Shown here piece by piece: positions 1,055-38,200 of a stretch of 64,000 nucleotides of DNA; position 1 is the stretch's first letter; each line of letters opens with the position of its first letter. The stretch is from a phage, in the sequence record NC_135731.1; one strand, given 5' to 3'. A program made the position numbers and the translations under genes. The notes beneath the pieces were generated by a model. That model was not told where the DNA came from. It made no database searches and worked only from the letters and a program-made list of their open reading frames with translations.

Positions 1055-3127
1055 TTATGAGAAGTCTGGCGGGACAACATCTTCTACATACCCTTTCAGA
1101 GCAACCTGCCCCATATGAAGCACGGTAGAATCTCTGGCGGTAACAGTGATGCTGTCAGACATTACTTGCGGGTATGCCCACACATACTGTTTTACCTCAG
1201 GGTATCTATACTCTATGGTTGCCATGTTTCCGCAGATACATCTCCATAAAAATTCTTGGTAATTCCTGGTTGGGTCGTAGCCATATACCGGAGCAAGCTC
1301 TTTGCTAGGAACGAACCCTGCAAGGTATTGTATTTCAGACGGTTGCCAACCTAACTTAACGATAGGTATGTTTACAGACTCTTTTGCCTTTTCAATACCT
1401 CCCTGCATCACCCAATCGTAGCACTCGGTGCAGAAGAAATCAAGAGCACCTGCTTCCTTTTTATATTGGTCAGCAAGGTTCAGCTTTTGCGTAAGCTCGG
1501 TTTCCATGATGGTTGGGAAAAACAGCAAAGCTGTCATCTGAGCTGATGCAGCGTGTGCCTTTATTGCCTTTGAAATAGCCGCAATACGAGCGCCAAGCTT
1601 ACCACGACAAAATGCTACATACTTGTCGTAAACACCGCCAGTTTTAGGATCGTCAATAGTCCCAATATCTAATGCATACTCACCTGTCTCATCATAAAAC
1701 GCCTGCTTTGTAGGGTAATCATAAATACAAGGTCTACGAGTATCGGTATTGTACCACCACCACGGTTCACCAACCTGCATAATCACTGGCAGGTTGTTTC
1801 TCATAGCGGCTGATGCAAAATTCTTAAATACTGCAGTAAGGAAATTCATACCCTCTTCAATGGTTGGAGACAGGAGGTAGCTACAGGGTGTATACCCTGT
1901 TTTAGCGTAGTTATCGTTCCAGTCTCTTTGGGTCCATTCCAACGGGCAGGCATCGCTGAAAAGCTCAAAACTTACAGATTGCATAACGTCGAAGTTATGT
2001 CGTTTGGCATTGTACATAAAATCATCATGCCATTTATAAGCTGCAGCGTTTAGCGCCCCTGTTCTGTTTATAGACCATTGGGTTCCTGACCATGTGTAGT
2101 CATAATAATGACTCATACCAACATAATGGTTTATGGTTCCGGTATAGCCCAGACGCTTGATATTGTTCAACACCCTTAAAGGAGATACGTTCCACATATC
2201 GTCATATGCGGTGCAGATCCCAACGTCGTGCTCTTTAACCTGAATATTGTTAAGTTGCATCATTTTCCAACCCGTGTCTGGCTGAAGCAGATCTAGGCGC
2301 AACTCACACTCTACATTTTCCGTTCTCGGGTCTGTGCTATTACTTACCCAGTCTTTAGGCATAAGCGGTATTAAAATCCTTCTCACCTGCCGAGGATCAA
2401 CACCCATCATGTTGTTGTTCTGATCCATCCCGACGCAGTCCTCGAAATCAATATGAATCTCTGCAACATTCTTATCCTCTGAGATGCTGACAGCATATTG
2501 AGCTAAAGGAACATAGATGATTGTGCCATCAACAAGGTCTACAGTCATAATCATCTTTTCAGGAGTGGAGAAGTTGCTGGCATTGGTTATTGACATTCTG
2601 AACCAAAGCTTGGTGTTTCTCATCTCGTAGTGATCATCAAACCCAATACCGAAATGGTCATACTTGTCAACTGTTTCCCAAATGCACCCAGCCATACCTC
2701 CATATGTTCTTGACACTAAACGGTTAATACAACAGTTGTTATCTGCAACAATACAGGTACTTTCAGTCTGCTGAGTAGTTGTAACCCAATATCTTGGGTG
2801 AAACATTCTCTCCTCAACAGTATCCCAAGATATCCTGTCAAGATTCTCATCTGAAACTATTGTACATTTCGACCTTTGTGTTCCAATCATCACCCCTTGA
2901 GATTTTGATGAAAACTCCATAAAGAAGCTTCTTGGCAACCTGTTGGGTAATTTGTCAACAATTTCTACGGGGATCTCAATACTGGTTGCCCCAATTGGGA
3001 TAGTTACATCGCCCTCAACATGATTATAATCCCTACCAGGAACGGCAGTATCCTGAACTGTGCGGTAATGAAACTGTGCAGCCATTGTAGAGTAATCACG
3101 GTAAGGTTTAAAAACAGCTGTTGCCAT
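1055..3127 (-). CDS. large virion structural protein, function unknown
   Basis: 690-aa ORF inside tail/baseplate block; start codon overlaps stop of upstream gene at nt 3127 (translational coupling); no catalytic motif recognised. Confidence 0.35.
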   Translation of the reverse strand: MATAVFKPYRDYSTMAAQFHYRTVQDTAVPGRDYNHVEGDVTIPIGATSIEIPVEIVDKLPNRLPRSFFMEFSSKSQGVMIGTQRSKCTIVSDENLDRISWDTVEERMFHPRYWVTTTQQTESTCIVADNNCCINRLVSRTYGGMAGCIWETVDKYDHFGIGFDDHYEMRNTKLWFRMSITNASNFSTPEKMIMTVDLVDGTIIYVPLAQYAVSISEDKNVAEIHIDFEDCVGMDQNNNMMGVDPRQVRRILIPLMPKDWVSNSTDPRTENVECELRLDLLQPDTGWKMMQLNNIQVKEHDVGICTAYDDMWNVSPLRVLNNIKRLGYTGTINHYVGMSHYYDYTWSGTQWSINRTGALNAAAYKWHDDFMYNAKRHNFDVMQSVSFELFSDACPLEWTQRDWNDNYAKTGYTPCSYLLSPTIEEGMNFLTAVFKNFASAAMRNNLPVIMQVGEPWWWYNTDTRRPCIYDYPTKQAFYDETGEYALDIGTIDDPKTGGVYDKYVAFCRGKLGARIAAISKAIKAHAASAQMTALLFFPTIMETELTQKLNLADQYKKEAGALDFFCTECYDWVMQGGIEKAKESVNIPIVKLGWQPSEIQYLAGFVPSKELAPVYGYDPTRNYQEFLWRCICGNMATIEYRYPEVKQYVWAYPQVMSDSITVTARDSTVLHMGQVALKGYVEDVVPPDFS

Positions 3128-3813
3128 TAACCCTCCTGTCTAGTTGCGTTTACTGTAATACTTTCACAATAAATGGTTGTGGTGTCCCAATCAGGTCTTA
3201 CGTCAGGAACATATAGCAAAGTAGCCAGCCCACCAACTCCAAACTGGTTTTCTTCCCATACTGATCCGAAGCCAAGAGCTGTGGAGTCCCCTTCAAAACC
3301 AAAAGCTTGCCCTTGCGATTCTGTAAGACGCAAATGACAAGGCAATGGTAACATATCTAAGATCTGATCGATAGACTGCAATATGTCAAAGCAAGTTTTT
3401 CTAATATTTATGTCAAACCTGAAGTTGTCTCCTTTCCACGTATCGAAATTGTCTCTTCCGAACAATTGTCGCAAGGTGGAGATGACATCTTCGCGAGTCC
3501 CGCCCCTTGATGCTGCGGCCTGCTGAATAATTAGTGTGGCACGAAAATCAGCATCTGAAAGTCCATTCCTAAGAATACCAAGTTGATTACCAACTTCGTC
3601 AAGGTATCTTCCGCTGGCATTGTTAAGCAATCTTCCTTCAGCCAAACCTACCAGCATCTTATCAACATCCTCCAACCTTTTAAGGTATACGGTTAAGAAT
3701 GTGACTAAATTAACCTTCTCAGCCAGAAAATCTCCAGGTAGGTAGTCAAGACCTCCCTGAACAAAATCTGGCAGAGTGTGGATGTGGTTAACATCCGACT
3801 TAATCTCTGCCAT
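3127..3813 (-). CDS. putative baseplate protein (gpI-like position)
   Basis: 228-aa ORF immediately downstream of baseplate-J-like gene, as in P2/Mu-type baseplate modules; assignment by position only. Confidence 0.3.
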   Translation of the reverse strand: MAEIKSDVNHIHTLPDFVQGGLDYLPGDFLAEKVNLVTFLTVYLKRLEDVDKMLVGLAEGRLLNNASGRYLDEVGNQLGILRNGLSDADFRATLIIQQAAASRGGTREDVISTLRQLFGRDNFDTWKGDNFRFDINIRKTCFDILQSIDQILDMLPLPCHLRLTESQGQAFGFEGDSTALGFGSVWEENQFGVGGLATLLYVPDVRPDWDTTTIYCESITVNATRQEG

Positions 3814-32933: not shown

Positions 32934-34401
32934 CAGCCCTACTGATGTCCTGGCCCAAAAGCTTCATCAGCTCTTCCTGATCCATGTCCTCGTCAAATCT
33001 TTCATCAAACCCGCCTACTTCAAGAATCTTATTAATTACTGCAGGAGTTTTTGGCAAGTAACCTACAGCACCGATCCTCTGGACAAACTTGGAGAAGCTC
33101 TCCATATCCACTTCTTCAATCAGACCAGGTTTCAGTTTAGGCATATCATCATCTTCGAGGATGATACCATTCAATGCCAGAAGCTGTGGAATAAGATCTT
33201 TATTGAAGGCCTCAGTGATAATATCTATATCACGCTGAACAAAATGACCATGGATAGACTGTTTTGACTCAGACAGAGAGAAAGATCCGACGTTATCGTT
33301 ACCGAGGTTAATAAAGCCAGCACCGAAACGGTCAAGAATCGCCTTCTTACGGGCATCAATCAAATCTTTAGTGGAATACTGCTTACCCATACCGTCAACC
33401 CCTTTCAGGGTCATGGAGTAAAGCTCTTTACCAGACTTATCTCTATCAGACGGGAGTATAAAGAAACTTTGCTCACCACTATGGGCGTTTGCTGCGTCAA
33501 GCATAAGGTCTGCAACCATTCTCCCTTCCATTGAATTCGGGTCAATGCTGGCCTTGTTCAAAATATTGGAAGGAATTTTCAGCTCAAGCACACCACCAAG
33601 GTCTTTGGAACAGCCAACAACCTCAAGGTTTTCAATCAGAACTTTCTCACGGAAAGATCTGTAGCAACCTATCATCGGTGACACACCCGCAGGGTTAGAT
33701 TCTGTTCCTGACAGGGTCATGAGCATAAGCTTTTTAGCAGGGATGAAAATTTCAGGCTCATTAAAGCCTTTTGAAGGCATTGCAGCAAGAGGTCCAGCCC
33801 AGCGTGCATTCTGAGTGTTTAGAAATGCATTAGGTGACTGATAAATACCTGTCAGTGTTCTACTATTCTTGTCAAAGACAAACGGCTCTGATCTGGACAG
33901 ACTGGCCTGAGGTCGGAATGCAATTTTATCAATAAGAAGCATCCCGGCATATTTACCTTCTTTCTCTCTGCGGTATACTTTCTCAAACAGTGAAAAACCA
34001 TACTCGTTAAAGGTAGCTGCGCTTCTTGCAATATCCCGAAGGGTTTGTTGGTTTGCCAAATTACGCAAAGAATACTCTATAAGCTCGGCAGCTTTCTTAG
34101 AGTCTTCACTTTTAACATTATAAAGGATCTTAAAATCATTGAACGCTTTCGTGATGAAAACATATTTTGTATCTAAGGCAGTAGCAACTGTGGAATCACA
34201 TTTCATAGTCTCCACTGTGGCAATCAGCTGAGGCCAACGCAATTCCTCAACCATCATAGATTGCGATTCTGCCATAATTTGGGAAAGTGCGCCAGAACCG
34301 ATCTCACTCATACGAACATTATGAGTTGGTGCGCCTGCGTTCCCAGATTTATTCACAGTTTTGGCTGTGGCGTTGTGTTTCCTGCGGTTCTTTTTGGACA
34401 C
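32845..34401 (-). CDS. portal protein
   Basis: 518-aa ORF directly downstream of large terminase and upstream of protease/scaffold; assignment by size and conserved head-module order. Confidence 0.6.
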   Translation of the reverse strand: MSKKNRRKHNATAKTVNKSGNAGAPTHNVRMSEIGSGALSQIMAESQSMMVEELRWPQLIATVETMKCDSTVATALDTKYVFITKAFNDFKILYNVKSEDSKKAAELIEYSLRNLANQQTLRDIARSAATFNEYGFSLFEKVYRREKEGKYAGMLLIDKIAFRPQASLSRSEPFVFDKNSRTLTGIYQSPNAFLNTQNARWAGPLAAMPSKGFNEPEIFIPAKKLMLMTLSGTESNPAGVSPMIGCYRSFREKVLIENLEVVGCSKDLGGVLELKIPSNILNKASIDPNSMEGRMVADLMLDAANAHSGEQSFFILPSDRDKSGKELYSMTLKGVDGMGKQYSTKDLIDARKKAILDRFGAGFINLGNDNVGSFSLSESKQSIHGHFVQRDIDIITEAFNKDLIPQLLALNGIILEDDDMPKLKPGLIEEVDMESFSKFVQRIGAVGYLPKTPAVINKILEVGGFDERFDEDMDQEELMKLLGQDISRAGDGMAAGSTGNGTSKMSSTRDNSISNMEN

Positions 34402-34503
34402 AAGCTTTACCCCTCAAAACAGTATAACAAAATAGCCCTCGTGTTAGAGGGCTAGTATCTCCGATTACTCTATTCTACCACATCTAATTAAGATTGGCAA
34501 CAC

Positions 34504-35289
34504 TTAGATAAAACGCTTGAACATAGAAGGTGATGAGATTGATGGAATCACACAAGGAAGTGCTACCTCCTCTTTCTCCAGGAAATTAATCGCAGAAGCT
34601 ACACAGTCGGCCCAGTCGTCTTTTCTGTTAAATGTTGATCTTTCCCCGTTGAATTTTTCAAGTTCAGTCAGAAATGCTTCCAGAGTATCAGGATGGAAAC
34701 TGGATTTTACAATCCTCACCATTCCTTGTTGGGCAAGATTGGCAAAAGGTGAGAACCTTGTCAGTTTAGATTTGTTGGAAGGCATCGGGTCTTCTTCAAC
34801 CCTGAACCCTTCGGCGAGCAAGGATCTGGAGGAGGTTAAGAACTCACTCTTACCTGCCTGACCGGGGTCCACAGAGAATACGATTATACAATCATCACCA
34901 TCAAACTGCGCCTGTTTCCTGATGATCACATCTCGTTCACCAGCCTTTTTACAAAACTTACCTTCCAGACCTGTGGAATACCTCCCGTCATCCACGTTCT
35001 CAGGACAATAATCACCGGACAGGTAATAAAAGCCGTCACTATCTTTACTTACCTTAACACTGGCGGTAAAGTCAGGAAATTTATTACCGGAAGTTCTCTC
35101 GGTTCCTGCCTTATCCCATGCCCTGCAAGATACTGATCCAAGAGGTACTCTATCGGCATCACGAAGGAAAGATCTTTGAAAATAGTTTGCACCCTCAGGC
35201 TTTGCAAACCAGTTACCATGGAGAAGCTGAGCTTTTTCCAGCTCTGGTAGACCTTCGAGGAAAGCAAGGTATTCTGGGTTGTCTCTCAA
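34504..35289 (-). CDS. terminase large subunit, exon 3 (C-terminal nuclease domain)
   Basis: begins RDNPEYL..., continuing the terminase sequence that stops at ...FIGATI in the 36281..36571 fragment; acidic residues consistent with RNase-H-like nuclease domain. Confidence 0.7.
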   Translation of the reverse strand: MRDNPEYLAFLEGLPELEKAQLLHGNWFAKPEGANYFQRSFLRDADRVPLGSVSCRAWDKAGTERTSGNKFPDFTASVKVSKDSDGFYYLSGDYCPENVDDGRYSTGLEGKFCKKAGERDVIIRKQAQFDGDDCIIVFSVDPGQAGKSEFLTSSRSLLAEGFRVEEDPMPSNKSKLTRFSPFANLAQQGMVRIVKSSFHPDTLEAFLTELEKFNGERSTFNRKDDWADCVASAINFLEKEEVALPCVIPSISSPSMFKRFI

Positions 35290-36286
35290 ACAGACAGGAT
35301 TATCGAATCCTTATATTCAAAGGTGGTCGCAACACCACCCTCCGCACCATTACGTGCTGCTGCATGTTACCATGCAGAGTAGACTATATCACCACCCATC
35401 TCAGGGTGCTTCGCTTTTCGAGCGCCATAAGCTTGCGCCCTACTCCCTCTCGGGATAGTCGTTGAACTACATTACCAATCGTAATTGTTTGAAATATAGG
35501 TGTAAGTCTTACGGTCTTTTATTCCTTTAACAACACTAAAACTTACTCCCCACTTCTTAGCTATTTTATTTACACACAAAACCCTATCACTAAGATCCTC
35601 GCAGATACCTATTATCTTGTGCTCACTTATCCTATTAGAGGTTGGCACTTTTCTAAAGTTAAACTCTTTAGAAATATCTGGGTATACTGAGCCATTCTTT
35701 ATACCACTTACAAGTGGTTGATTGACACCAAACATTTCACAAATGTCTTTTACCCTTGCACCTTGCTCTAACAGCCTACATATTTCAAGAGCAGTGGCAT
35801 CATCTAGGGACCTGTATTTATTGACATAGTCCTTTTTAAGTCCCATTTCATGAGCGTGATGTGTGTTTTCCTCAGGCGTTGTCCACTCAAGGTTCCATGC
35901 GGCGTTATTCAACTTATTACCATCCAGGTGGTTTACTTGAGTTTTCACGCTGGGATTATCATTATCAACAAAAGCCATAGCGATAACTCTATGGACTAGC
36001 ACTTGGAACTTTTTCCCGCCCTCGCACAAAGTGACCATAGCATAGCCAGTCTTTTTCTGCACATTAGGATGGAGGAATTTATTAGAATACAGACTGTAAA
36101 TTCTGCCATCGTATGTAGCACAATAATGATTGTAGCCTAAAAAGCCTAAATTTCTCATTTCAAACATCTCCCTACTACAGGTTCGGAAGGGTAATTATAG
36201 CTGCTGATTGTCCGTTTAGCAATCGGATTTTCCAGCAATTAACGAAGTTATTCGACGTGCATTTCTGCACGAAGCCACTATCATTT
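35287..36286 (-). mobile_element. group I intron 2 in terminase large subunit gene (bounds approximate) carrying an HNH homing endonuclease ORF
   Basis: minus strand contains group I core elements in order: P-like UAAUUGCUGGAAAAUC (plus 36226..36241), Q AAUCAGCAGC (36200..36209), HNH ORF, R GUUCAACGACUAU (35455..35467), S GAUAUAGUCUAC (35379..35390); interrupts a gene that is contiguous in other phages. Confidence 0.65.
35472..36167 (-). CDS. HNH homing endonuclease (intron-encoded)
   Basis: HNH motif NHLDGNKLNNAAWNLEWTTPEEN plus C-terminal helix-turn-helix-like DNA-binding region; located inside intron 2. Confidence 0.75.
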   Translation of the reverse strand: MFEMRNLGFLGYNHYCATYDGRIYSLYSNKFLHPNVQKKTGYAMVTLCEGGKKFQVLVHRVIAMAFVDNDNPSVKTQVNHLDGNKLNNAAWNLEWTTPEENTHHAHEMGLKKDYVNKYRSLDDATALEICRLLEQGARVKDICEMFGVNQPLVSGIKNGSVYPDISKEFNFRKVPTSNRISEHKIIGICEDLSDRVLCVNKIAKKWGVSFSVVKGIKDRKTYTYISNNYDW

Positions 36287-36571
36287 AATGGTTGCGCCTA
36301 TGAACGAGAATGACAACGGTCTTGGCTTGATCTCTACACCCAGTCCGTTAACCGTGGTGTATTTCTCTATCAACTCTTCCTTAGAGTCTCCCCAAATAAA
36401 TTCACCGTCGCGTCGGATAAAATATCTTTTCTTACCGCATTTTTCCGGATCTGGATACCCTTCATCGTCCAACCACCATCTAACCAGTTTGGCAAGCATG
36501 TGTTCTGAATCGGGGTTACAGCTGATAACCATTCTTGATGGATACTTTGACTGAGATCGCAGACGAGACAT
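36281..36571 (-). CDS. terminase large subunit, exon 2 (middle fragment; ORF track includes intron-derived flanks)
   Basis: contains ATPase C-motif region RMVISCNPDSEHM and ends ...SFSFIGATI; open frame bounded by intron sequences on both sides. Confidence 0.65.
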   Translation of the reverse strand: MSRLRSQSKYPSRMVISCNPDSEHMLAKLVRWWLDDEGYPDPEKCGKKRYFIRRDGEFIWGDSKEELIEKYTTVNGLGVEIKPRPLSFSFIGATIK

Positions 36572-37487
36572 CAGGTAGTCTATCTGCTCCCATTCGAATT
36601 GTGTCGTTTATGTTCAGGCAAGGTCGCTAGTCTTGCCCCGCCATTTTCAGGCAGCTGCATGTCTCCATGCAGACCAGACTATATCTTATGAATGTGTAAA
36701 TACTCTGCCGCTCTAAGAATAGTTTCCTCATCTTCTTGGAAGAAACCTAAAGCTCTGTTGCATTTATCACAAAGCAACCCTCTTACAGCACCAGTTTTAT
36801 GGTCATGATCAACACAAAAGAAATCTCTGTACCCTTGCGTCCTATACTCATCGAGAGATATTCTACAAATGGCACACTTATGATCTTGATCTGAGAGTAG
36901 ACGATAGTATTCATCTTTTGTTATGTGAAATTTCTTCTCAATCTGATAAAACTTTTCACACATCTTACACCTGTTCGTAACCAGATATACTTTACCATAG
37001 TCACGTTTTGTGTAAAAACTATCAGCGAGCATACTTTCATGACAAGATTTGCATTCAAAAAGTTCACCTTTCTTCAGCAAGTCTTGAATAAATAATGCTG
37101 CGTCATCTCTCTTAACCATATTTTTGTTTTTACGAGATCCACCCTTCCTGTAGTACATATAGCATTCCTTGCATGTACCTGAGTATCCATCCTTGCTCTT
37201 AGATGATAAAAAGAAATCATCAATAGGTAGAACTCTTTGGCAATCCATACATTTTTTAGTATTACACATTCATCCTCCCGTTTCGAATCGCTTGATTCTA
37301 CGTCTTTCGACTAGTCGTTGAACGTTCATCCTCTCGGATGCTTCGCTGCGGATTATCTAAATTAACACACTGTTACCATACCTTCGATCTCTCTTCGAAG
37401 CCTCTATTATGTTACCATAGCAGGTTGGTGGTGTCAATAATAAAGATTTCCCCGCAATTAGGGAGGTTTTACGAGAGCTACAAATTA
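36572..37487 (-). mobile_element. group I intron 1 in terminase large subunit gene (bounds approximate) carrying an endonuclease-VII-like HNH ORF
   Basis: minus strand has P-like UAAUUGCGGGGAAAUC (plus 37445..37460), Q AAUCCGCAGC (37345..37354), R GUUCAACGACUAG (37311..37323), then the ORF, then S AAGAUAUAGUC (36677..36687). Confidence 0.65.
36679..37269 (-). CDS. endonuclease VII-like (HNH-superfamily) homing endonuclease, intron-encoded
   Basis: Cys-rich zinc-binding N-terminus and endonuclease VII signature VDHDHKTGAVRGLLCDKCN; lies inside intron 1. Confidence 0.7.
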   Translation of the reverse strand: MCNTKKCMDCQRVLPIDDFFLSSKSKDGYSGTCKECYMYYRKGGSRKNKNMVKRDDAALFIQDLLKKGELFECKSCHESMLADSFYTKRDYGKVYLVTNRCKMCEKFYQIEKKFHITKDEYYRLLSDQDHKCAICRISLDEYRTQGYRDFFCVDHDHKTGAVRGLLCDKCNRALGFFQEDEETILRAAEYLHIHKI

Positions 37488-37913
37488 ACCCTCATCGAAG
37501 CAAACCATGGTATACTCAAGCCCCTGGTGGTTAAGCTTATCTTGTACATACTCCATATGGCAGTATTTTACAACAGCTCCCTTTTTGCTTCTATCCCACT
37601 TACCAGTGTTCGGATCAAACCGTGGAAAAATGAACTTATGATCCTTCTCTCTGAACTTTGGCTTAATGTTTTCAGGCAGATCACTATAAATAGCTACTGC
37701 TTTAGGCCATAGTCCACCCTCACCTTCCAACTGTGGGGTTGTTCTTCGGAACATAACCACAGAACTATGGGGGTCATCAATAATTTTAAGTGGCATCAAC
37801 TGCAAGAGGAACGACTTGCCAGACCCTGCGGCACCGCCGATTACCAAAATATCTGCATCGTTTTCTAGGATCATCTTCTGCTTTTCAGAACACGGTCCGT
37901 AAATCTTAGACAT
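37485..37913 (-). CDS. terminase large subunit, exon 1 (N-terminal ATPase fragment)
   Basis: Walker A GGAAGSGKS and Walker B-like VCFDE; frame terminates 2 codons after DE where intron 1 begins. Confidence 0.8.
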   Translation of the reverse strand: MSKIYGPCSEKQKMILENDADILVIGGAAGSGKSFLLQLMPLKIIDDPHSSVVMFRRTTPQLEGEGGLWPKAVAIYSDLPENIKPKFREKDHKFIFPRFDPNTGKWDRSKKGAVVKYCHMEYVQDKLNHQGLEYTMVCFDEG

Positions 37914-38200
37914 TAACCTCTCTCCTTTGGAAACAGTGTTCTAATATAGTCTTGCAAAATGATCAATTTAGCTCTATCATTGCTACAAGACAGATTATTA
38001 TCCCTCATAATGCCAGAATTCACTGCATCTGGAGCACCTTTCTTCAAAGGCATAGCTTTAGCAGGTGGTTTCATGGCACCTTCCGGGGGTTTAACAATCA
38101 ACCTTCCTACATCCGGAGGGTCAATCTTGTATTCTCTCTCAACGCTGGTTGCACACCCACATAATAACAAGCACACAATAAACAGTGTAGCAACTCTCAT
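37913..38200 (-). CDS. putative o-spanin (outer-membrane lipoprotein, Rz1-like)
   Basis: signal peptide with lipobox-like LLLCGC, Pro-rich mature region (PPDVGRLIVKPPEGAMKPPAKAMP); start overlaps i-spanin stop. Confidence 0.5.
   Translation of the reverse strand: MRVATLFIVCLLLCGCATSVEREYKIDPPDVGRLIVKPPEGAMKPPAKAMPLKKGAPDAVNSGIMRDNNLSCSNDRAKLIILQDYIRTLFPKERG

Follow-up and report, generated by a model that had tools for sequence, protein, structure and literature searches.

A gene for the large terminase subunit (TerL) lies in pieces on the minus strand of the phage sequence NC_135731.1, a stretch of 64,000 nucleotides (nt) that we refer to as the window, and it is very probably a single gene carrying two group I introns that splice themselves out, each of which bears a nuclease gene of its own. 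By its sequence the window is that of a Vequintavirus, an rV5-like coliphage: in megablast searches of isolate phage genomes, positions 34400-38000 match Escherichia phage phiWec196 (LC739542) at 100% over their full length, and about 125 further rV5-like Vequintavirus phages at 95-99%. The TerL gene is flanked by spanin genes and the portal gene, as is the case in rV5.

Three terminase-like open reading frames (ORFs) appear in the ORF list of the minus strand: 37913-37485, which ends in MVCFDEG and a stop; 36571-36281, which contains RMVISCNPDSE and terminates in FIGATIK and a stop; and 35289-34504, which begins at RDNPEYL. Pfam places the first in Terminase_6N (profile positions 2-104), the second in the same family (117-163) and the third in Terminase_6C. 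The boundaries of the segments separating them were obtained by alignment with five relatives, then extended to nine loci read base by base. Exactly 883 nt are missing at site 1 in phages PDX, AlexBoehm and VB-EcoM-WM, and exactly 979 nt at site 2 in DrSchubert, AlexBoehm and LL12, while shorter, ORF-less versions of the segments are found in rV5, RudolfGeigy and LL12 (intron 1, 319 nt) and in RudolfGeigy and VB-EcoM-WM (intron 2, 266-268 nt). Exon 1 spans the protein from the Walker A motif GAAGSGKS to Walker B and the catalytic Glu (VCFDE-G), its last codon being GGU with intron 1 in phase 0; exon 2 ends in AU, which places intron 2 in phase 2; and exon 3 encodes the RNaseH-like nuclease domain. 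In terms of the protein, intron 1 is thus inserted at VCFDEG/TQF, right after Walker B and the catalytic Glu, and intron 2 at GATI/FDNP (the slash marks the insertion site here and below).

Conceptual excision at the boundaries defined by the relatives joins 1548 nt in frame, encoding a TerL of 515 amino acids that is equal in length to the product of the uninterrupted TerL coding sequence (CDS) of AlexBoehm and identical to it at 514 of the 515 residues (99.8%), those across both junctions included. The predicted spliced junctions are GATGAGGGT/ACACAATTC and GCAACCAT/ATTCGATAA, with exon ends ...TTCGATGAGGGT/ACACAATTCGAA... and ...GGCGCAACCAT/ATTCGATAATCC..., respectively. Searched with phmmer against PDB sequences, the spliced product gave no match at E<=0.01, and Pfam and PHROG profiles were therefore used. 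In PHROG it matches one TerL family, phrog_979, in an unbroken stretch over residues 1-513 (E 1.7e-208), and after conceptual splicing the Walker A/B ATPase and the RNaseH-like nuclease (Terminase_6N and Terminase_6C, the T4-like type) stand in one polypeptide, as in a large terminase.

Both intervening segments have the anatomy of group I introns. The conserved core elements P, Q, R and S occur once each per segment, on the minus strand and in the order P>Q>R>S (Table 1). A P1 helix can be drawn at each 5' end: the exon bases GAGGGU pair with the internal guide sequence (IGS) GCUCUC in intron 1 (-10.5 kcal/mol), the 5' splice site (37488) being a U.G wobble, and the exon bases CCAU(UA) pair with the IGS (UA)GUGG in intron 2 (-9.9 kcal/mol), with U at position -1 and again a U.G wobble. 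At the boundaries taken from empty-site relatives, both introns end in an omega-G (..AUAAACG and ..AUAUAAGG). The two introns share an almost identical P9 hairpin, which in intron 2 reads CUGCAUGGUAACAUGCAG. In the Rfam alignments of both, 29-38 nt are inserted after the R element and hold two small hairpins ahead of P3', those of intron 1 being P7.1/P7.2-like. Hairpins P7.1 and P7.2 between P7 and P3' are what we take to be the signature of subgroup IA, of the T4 td/nrdB/sunY type in the sense of Michel & Westhof (1990). When the two ORF-less cores were aligned globally with MAFFT, identity came to 58% but the 5' halves were clearly misaligned, and we therefore state the similarity of the cores only as the shared P, Q, R and S elements and the near-identical P9 hairpin.

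Table 1. Position of the TerL exons, introns, intron-borne nuclease genes and terminator in the window
Feature	Position	Strand	Description
TerL exon 1	37488..37913	-	426 nt, 142 codons; ORF; Terminase_6N; boundary from PDX (lacks intron 1)
Group I intron 1	36605..37487	-	883 nt; starts UAAUUUGUAGCUCUC, ends ..CAUAAACG (terminal G)
Intron 1 core elements	P 37460-37445, Q 37354-37345, R 37323-37312, S 36685-36677	-	motif search
ORF1 (intron 1)	36679..37269	-	196 amino acids; endonuclease-VII-type ββα-Me nuclease
TerL exon 2	36288..36604	-	317 nt; TQFEWEQIDYLMSRLRSQSKYPSRMVISCNPD...FIGAT(I); middle part of Terminase_6N; alignment of relatives
Group I intron 2	35309..36287	-	979 nt; starts UAAAUGAUAGUGG, ends ..AAUAUAAGG (terminal G)
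Intron 2 core elements	P 36241-36226, Q 36209-36200, R 35467-35456, S 35390-35382	-	motif search
ORF2 (intron 2)	35472..36167	-	231 amino acids (228 from the second ATG, 36158); I-HmuI-type HNH_3 plus HTH
TerL exon 3	34504..35308	-	805 nt including stop; (I)FDNPVCLRDNPEYL...; Terminase_6C 4e-7; junction from relatives
Intrinsic terminator after TerL	34426..34454	-	stem TAGCCCTC/GAGGGCTA, then T-run

Scored against Rfam at the gathering threshold, which is 50 bits for the group I model RF00028, the whole window yields tRNAs only and no group I match. At a permissive threshold, intron 1 gives a full-length match to RF00028 (47.6 bits, E 3e-10) and intron 2 two half-matches (24.3 and 34.9 bits), with no additional group I candidate anywhere in the 64 kb. 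The introns of the window fall below the gathering score because ORF insertions of 560-700 nt in their loops are penalised. The ORF-less alleles of intron 1 in rV5 and RudolfGeigy reach 84-85 bits, above the gathering score, and the ORF-less intron 2 of RudolfGeigy reaches 95.6 bits (E 2.6e-24); the E-values of these alleles, 1e-21 to 1e-24, put the group I match far beyond chance, and at the aligned boundaries their cores are near-identical to those of the window. Assignment of the segments to group I thus draws on the core score (by way of the ORF-less alleles), a P1 helix with its U.G wobble, the omega-G and the restoration of the reading frame.

An earlier reading of the letters alone, the original prediction, had proposed a TerL gene in three minus-strand exons with two group I introns, and had named an Rfam group I search and comparison of the spliced protein with an intact terminase as ways to check it. 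The relatives' boundaries, the restored frame, the phrog_979 match and the RF00028 scores bear the proposal out, and both checks came out in its favour. The four core elements on the minus strand of each segment had been recognized correctly, as had the position of the ORF between R and S in intron 1 and between Q and R in intron 2. The end of exon 1 at 37488 and the end of exon 2 were exact as well; the starts of exons 2 and 3, given as about 36560 and 35286, were too far downstream by 44 and 22 nt (the actual starts being 36604 and 35308), because they had been taken at the first visible ORF residues and not at the splice sites.

Inteins, frameshifts or errors of assembly have a negligible probability as the cause of the interruptions. 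An intein does appear to be present in the same gene, at Walker A, in the Avunavirus phage 18-1-2, but both insertions considered here begin with in-frame stop codons and shift the frame, both contain ribozyme cores, and phages sequenced independently contain the same segments down to the base, so that inteins, frameshifts and sequencing artefacts could be excluded. Alternatively, the insertions could be degenerate and no longer splice, leaving TerL as three polypeptides that assemble after translation, in the manner of the mobE-split NrdA of Aeromonas phage Aeh1. Insertions associated with HNH genes that do not splice exist (discussed in PMC7344957), and an internal ATG in exon 2 (36571) and a TTG in exon 3 (35289) make an ORF of each. 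Starting there would, however, cost exon 2 and exon 3 their first 11 and 7 conserved residues, respectively, and the breaks would fall right after Walker B and the catalytic Glu and within the second conserved segment, GATI/FDNP. Both ribozyme cores are also fully conserved and, in alleles that lack the ORF, exceed the Rfam threshold by far; the exon ends are paired in P1, and the sites are seamless in 64 (site 1) and 95 (site 2) relatives. We consider three separate polypeptides very improbable, and a single TerL gene with two introns remains the reading that we follow.

Of the two intron-borne genes, ORF1 belongs to the endonuclease VII family: it matches Pfam Endonuclease_7 (PF02945) with 76.1 bits against a cut-off of 23.6 (E 2e-21) and endonuclease VII in PHROG (3e-33), and its closest solved relatives among PDB sequences are Hpy99I (1e-5) and T4 endonuclease VII (6e-4). 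Its motif CVDHDHKTGAVRGLLCDKCNRALG aligns with both, the CxxC...DHxH...N ββα-Me core being common to all three at low sequence identity. We know of no intron homing enzyme of the endonuclease VII type that has been characterised biochemically, although no search was aimed at one. The N-terminus of ORF1 (residues 3-62, window 37269-37080) is Cys-rich and zinc-ribbon-like and matches phrog_5558, labelled 'Lar-like restriction alleviation protein' (E 5e-11), a likeness that probably reflects merely a common zinc-ribbon DNA-binding module. ORF2 is of the I-HmuI type, with Pfam HNH_3 above its cut-off (29.6 bits against 24.8, 5e-7) and a C-terminal DNA-binding module, HTH_23 (24.1 bits, just under the cut-off of 24.6); it also matches phrog_59 (3.5e-51). 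I-HmuI itself (PDB 1U3E), the HNH nickase from the DNA polymerase intron of Bacillus phage SPO1, is its closest solved relative, aligning over the HNH and DNA-binding regions (residues 11-154, E 4e-12), again at low sequence identity. The description of both genes as HNH-type endonucleases in the original prediction is therefore exact for ORF2 (HNH_3), while ORF1 is of another family, Endonuclease_7, within the same fold superfamily.

The two genes also occupy different parts of the ribozyme. ORF1 sits in the P8 loop, where a 16-bp stem (-20.9 kcal/mol) arises from pairing of its first codons (AUGUGUAAUACU) with its last ones, and its stop region overlaps the S element; ORF2 sits in the P6 loop, with its stop codon 4 nt before the R element. 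In the ORF-less alleles, unrelated short perfect hairpins replace the ORF modules and truncated remnants are not found, the surrounding core being nearly identical. Because the nucleases belong to different families, lie in different loops and are replaced by intact hairpins in ORF-less alleles, the invasions appear to have been independent, and the original prediction that the introns, with their shared cores, are related but were invaded independently agrees with this. ORF1 differs from its DrSchubert counterpart by six synonymous and no non-synonymous substitutions, and ORF2 from those of rV5 and PDX by 14 synonymous and 3-4 non-synonymous ones, a ratio of non-synonymous to synonymous rates (dN/dS) of 0.05-0.07. 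An Avunavirus homologue retains 81% amino acid identity to ORF2 despite saturated synonymous sites, against only 74% for TerL exon 3. Both nuclease genes thus look functional and under purifying selection. As to their expression, the two best sigma-70-like sites of the region, each matching at 10 of 12 positions, fall within the intron cores, one a short way upstream of ORF1 (37437-37409, minus strand) and the other a short way upstream of ORF2 (36222-36194, minus strand); the promoter scan as a whole was not significant (13 sites against 8.8±3.2 in shuffled sequence), and the two sites are only a hint that the nuclease genes might have promoters of their own.

Sequences resembling parts of both cores turn up further afield. 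A 37-nt match (97%) to window 35431-35467, the R/P7.1 region of intron 2, is found in the Pseudomonas phages SPA01, PseuPha1 and SW_PA2862, and a 53-nt match (89%) to window 37275-37327, in the core of intron 1, in Vibrio phage D181. These short matches suggest that related group I introns reside in unrelated phage groups.

To describe the distribution of the introns, occupancy was read as the coverage class of a 3.6-kb query among about 120 close relatives, which fall into eight classes (Table 2). The allele of the window, with both introns and both ORFs, is shared by phiWec196, HdK5 and four records named 'Campylobacter phage' (A13b and A140-A142), whereas the largest class has both sites empty.

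Table 2. Occupancy of the two TerL insertion sites among close relatives (counts of the four lowest classes estimated by evenly spaced sampling of the ranking)
Coverage	Site 1	Site 2	Records
100%	intron 1 with ORF	intron 2 with ORF	6
84%	intron 1, ORF-less	intron 2 with ORF	4
75%	empty	intron 2 with ORF	3
73%	intron 1 with ORF	empty	23
63%	intron 1, ORF-less	intron 2, ORF-less	about 5
57%	intron 1, ORF-less	empty	about 13
55%	empty	intron 2, ORF-less	about 5
48%	empty	empty	about 55

Empty sites differ from occupied ones in the exon bases next to the insertion. Over the nine loci, intron-bearing alleles have GGT/ACA at site 1 and ACC AT/ at site 2, and empty sites GG(A or C)/ACG and ACA AT/, all of these differences being synonymous. 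A pattern scan of IMG/VR found no empty site with intron-type flanks at either position, and other flanks in 2 and 5 contigs; since these contigs are too few, empty sites were recovered instead by BLAST of synthetic 60-nt spliced junctions against isolate phages. By this route site 1 was empty in 64 records and site 2 in 95. The intron-type flanking bases occurred in none of these, and no junction was identical to that of the window (best 94.9% for site 1 and 98.3% for site 2). The exon bases required for P1 are present in every intron-bearing allele and not at empty sites. Linked flanking markers of this kind are what homing with co-conversion would predict; they would equally satisfy the need for P1 pairing, and are no proof of ongoing homing.

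The relatives include 18 GenBank records in the range MG065635-MG065690 that match the TerL locus and are named 'Campylobacter phage' (A13b, A140-A142, A147, C2, C9, C11, C12, D1 and others). Their stated host is C. jejuni, the matches listed are 96.6-98.3% identical and about full genome size, and the records carry no annotation. They are probably coliphages under a wrong host or organism label.

The patchy distribution bears on what the nucleases do. They could be domesticated packaging helpers, comparable to HNH proteins such as HK97 gp74 that stimulate terminase, or inactive relics, in introns that splice. Some HNH proteins encoded next to a terminase gene can act as cofactors of packaging (Kala et al. 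2014, as cited in PMC7344957), and the purifying selection on both ORFs shows that they have a function, not which one. But both ORFs are missing from most Vequintavirus genomes, and introns that lack an ORF are common, so that packaging can do without the nuclease proteins. Both ORFs lie in peripheral intron loops like those of classical intron homing endonucleases, the closest solved relative of ORF2 is the intron homing nickase I-HmuI, and the scattered occupancy together with the linked exon markers fits mobility. A packaging role or loss of activity therefore strikes us as distinctly unlikely, and homing enzymes encoded by spliced introns as the better account.

We would then picture the locus as follows. 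Each intron RNA would fold into a group I core and excise itself by guanosine-initiated two-step transesterification, P1 pairing the last exon bases with the internal guide sequence, the U.G wobble marking the 5' splice site and a G closing the intron; the three exons (Table 1) would be joined into the 515-residue TerL. Each intron would carry a free-loading nuclease gene in a peripheral loop, P8 in intron 1 and P6 in intron 2. In a mixed infection, the nucleases would most likely cut or nick the intron-less TerL alleles of co-infecting relatives, and repair from the intron-bearing genome would fill the empty site with a copy of the intron and of adjacent exon bases, which is homing with co-conversion.

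Several points weigh against this picture. We infer splicing in vivo, in this phage as in Vequintavirus generally, from homology and structure, and nuclease activity, target sites and ongoing homing are likewise deduced; searches of the literature for splicing data at the RNA level in any Vequintavirus yielded none. The ORF-bearing introns of the window remain under the Rfam gathering score (47.6 bits, and 24 and 35 in two parts), so that the case leans on the near-identical ORF-less alleles. The linked flanking markers could stem from the P1-pairing requirement and common ancestry, not from recent co-conversion. Finally, Aeh1 nrdA and CB7_245, cited in PMC7344957, are examples of HNH-bearing phage insertions that do not splice. 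That TerL is one gene with two introns seems very probable all the same; that the doubly loaded allele is a pair of independent, active gene drives is a more tentative proposition, which we would place slightly on the doubtful side of even.

Twin-intron TerL genes are already known, so that the locus is not new in kind, and the original prediction's view that such a gene is unusual is not supported: the case of rV5 was published in 2013, and TerL genes with two or three introns splice in Bastillevirinae. The rV5 paper, in its section 'Introns in terminase', describes TerL in three segments, one with a homing endonuclease, and credits D. Shub with locating the intron (Kropinski et al. 2013, Virol J 10:76; PMC3606486). 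Three pieces are joined in the rV5 record (DQ832317) to make up the 'terminase large subunit ORF64ABC', which encloses an 'HNH homing endonuclease'. Gene and both insertion sites are the same as in the window, nucleotide identity is about 98%, and intron 2 carries the same HNH ORF, whereas intron 1 of rV5 is ORF-less (319 nt), with a short P8 hairpin in place of the 564-nt ORF module. The window departs from the published case solely in that its intron 1 also carries an endonuclease gene, a state found in six database records. Other relatives have parts of this arrangement. In the BASEL phage DrSchubert (Maffei et al. 2021) the endonuclease-VII-type ORF of intron 1 is labelled 'putative homing endonuclease' within a joined TerL CDS, in RudolfGeigy, also of BASEL, TerL is a three-piece join around two ORF-less introns, and in LL12 it is annotated as an 'intron-containing gene', but none of the three has both introns with both ORFs.

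Splicing of a comparable intron has been demonstrated by reverse-transcription PCR and Sanger sequencing in Pectobacterium phage CB7 (Certrevirus), whose TerL intron contains an HNH gene (PMC7344957). CB7 belongs to the same subfamily, Vequintavirinae, and its intron is group I-like (Rfam 35 bits), interrupts the same gene at the Walker B site, and has an HNH_3-type ORF and a similar 3' architecture. Unlike the window, CB7 is of another genus and host and has one intron, located at GVD/EG; as this is 6 nt upstream of site 1, the intron is related to that of the window without being the same insertion. For Bastillevirinae, splicing both in vitro and in vivo has been demonstrated with TerL genes that contain two or three group I introns, some of the introns bearing HNH-type endonucleases, and exon skipping was seen in SIOphi (NAR 2025, PMC11878797). 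A TerL intron is also reported for Lactobacillus phage LL-H (Mikkonen & Alatossava 1995, as cited in PMC3606486). As in the window, essential packaging ATPase genes are interrupted in these phages by one to three self-splicing group I introns, but the lineages are unrelated, their hosts Gram-positive, and the insertion sites and endonuclease families different.

Further TerL insertions are found in a more distant relative, Escherichia phage 18-1-2 (Avunavirus, OK136180), at approximately 975-1960, 2167-2417 and 2885-3809 of its sequence L007. Besides the apparent intein in the Walker A loop (..IIGGAAG/CLSKDHEV...CVVVTGN/SGKSYLL..), a third site, some 11 codons upstream of site 1, holds a group I-like intron that has no ORF and scores 34 bits in Rfam; site 1 is empty, and site 2 of the window is occupied by an intron 2 with its HNH gene. 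Judging from these sequences, the TerL genes of Vequintavirinae would have at least four intron sites, that of CB7 included, and one intein site, clustered around the Walker motifs.

Two neighbouring elements remain to be mentioned. The terminator following TerL (Table 1) is the same element that the rV5 record annotates as a Rho-independent terminator. Between tRNA-Thr and tRNA-Ser, on the minus strand, lies a tRNA-like element of 99 nt (window 39262-39360) that scores 37.5 bits with the Rfam tRNA model, above its gathering score, is called 'tRNA-???' with a 4-base anticodon by ARAGORN, and looks as if it contained an insertion or an extended variable arm. It is not part of the rV5 RefSeq annotation, where six tRNAs are listed.

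In the records of phiWec196 (LC739542) and HdK5 (MK373780), the exons and both nuclease genes appear as separate CDSs ('hypothetical protein' or 'terminase-like family protein') with no join, and TerL is effectively unannotated. With the pieces unjoined, phylogenies or packaging-type predictions based on TerL can fail for such phages, and the remaining value of the finding lies in this correction of the annotation and in a natural test system for homing. The locus illustrates clearly how selfish elements target the most conserved motifs of an essential gene, and since its eight-state polymorphism occurs in easily grown coliphages, some of them public BASEL phages, it offers a handy system in which to test homing, co-conversion and intron-mediated competition. 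If the two introns are indeed a pair of gene drives, then in mixed infections the phage would gain an advantage over Vequintavirus relatives that lack the introns, the endonuclease-VII-type enzyme in P8 would be a homing endonuclease, and the genus would be a natural snapshot of the homing cycle in one essential gene, from empty site to intron with homing endonuclease gene to intron without it, as recorded in eight occupancy states with strictly linked exon markers.

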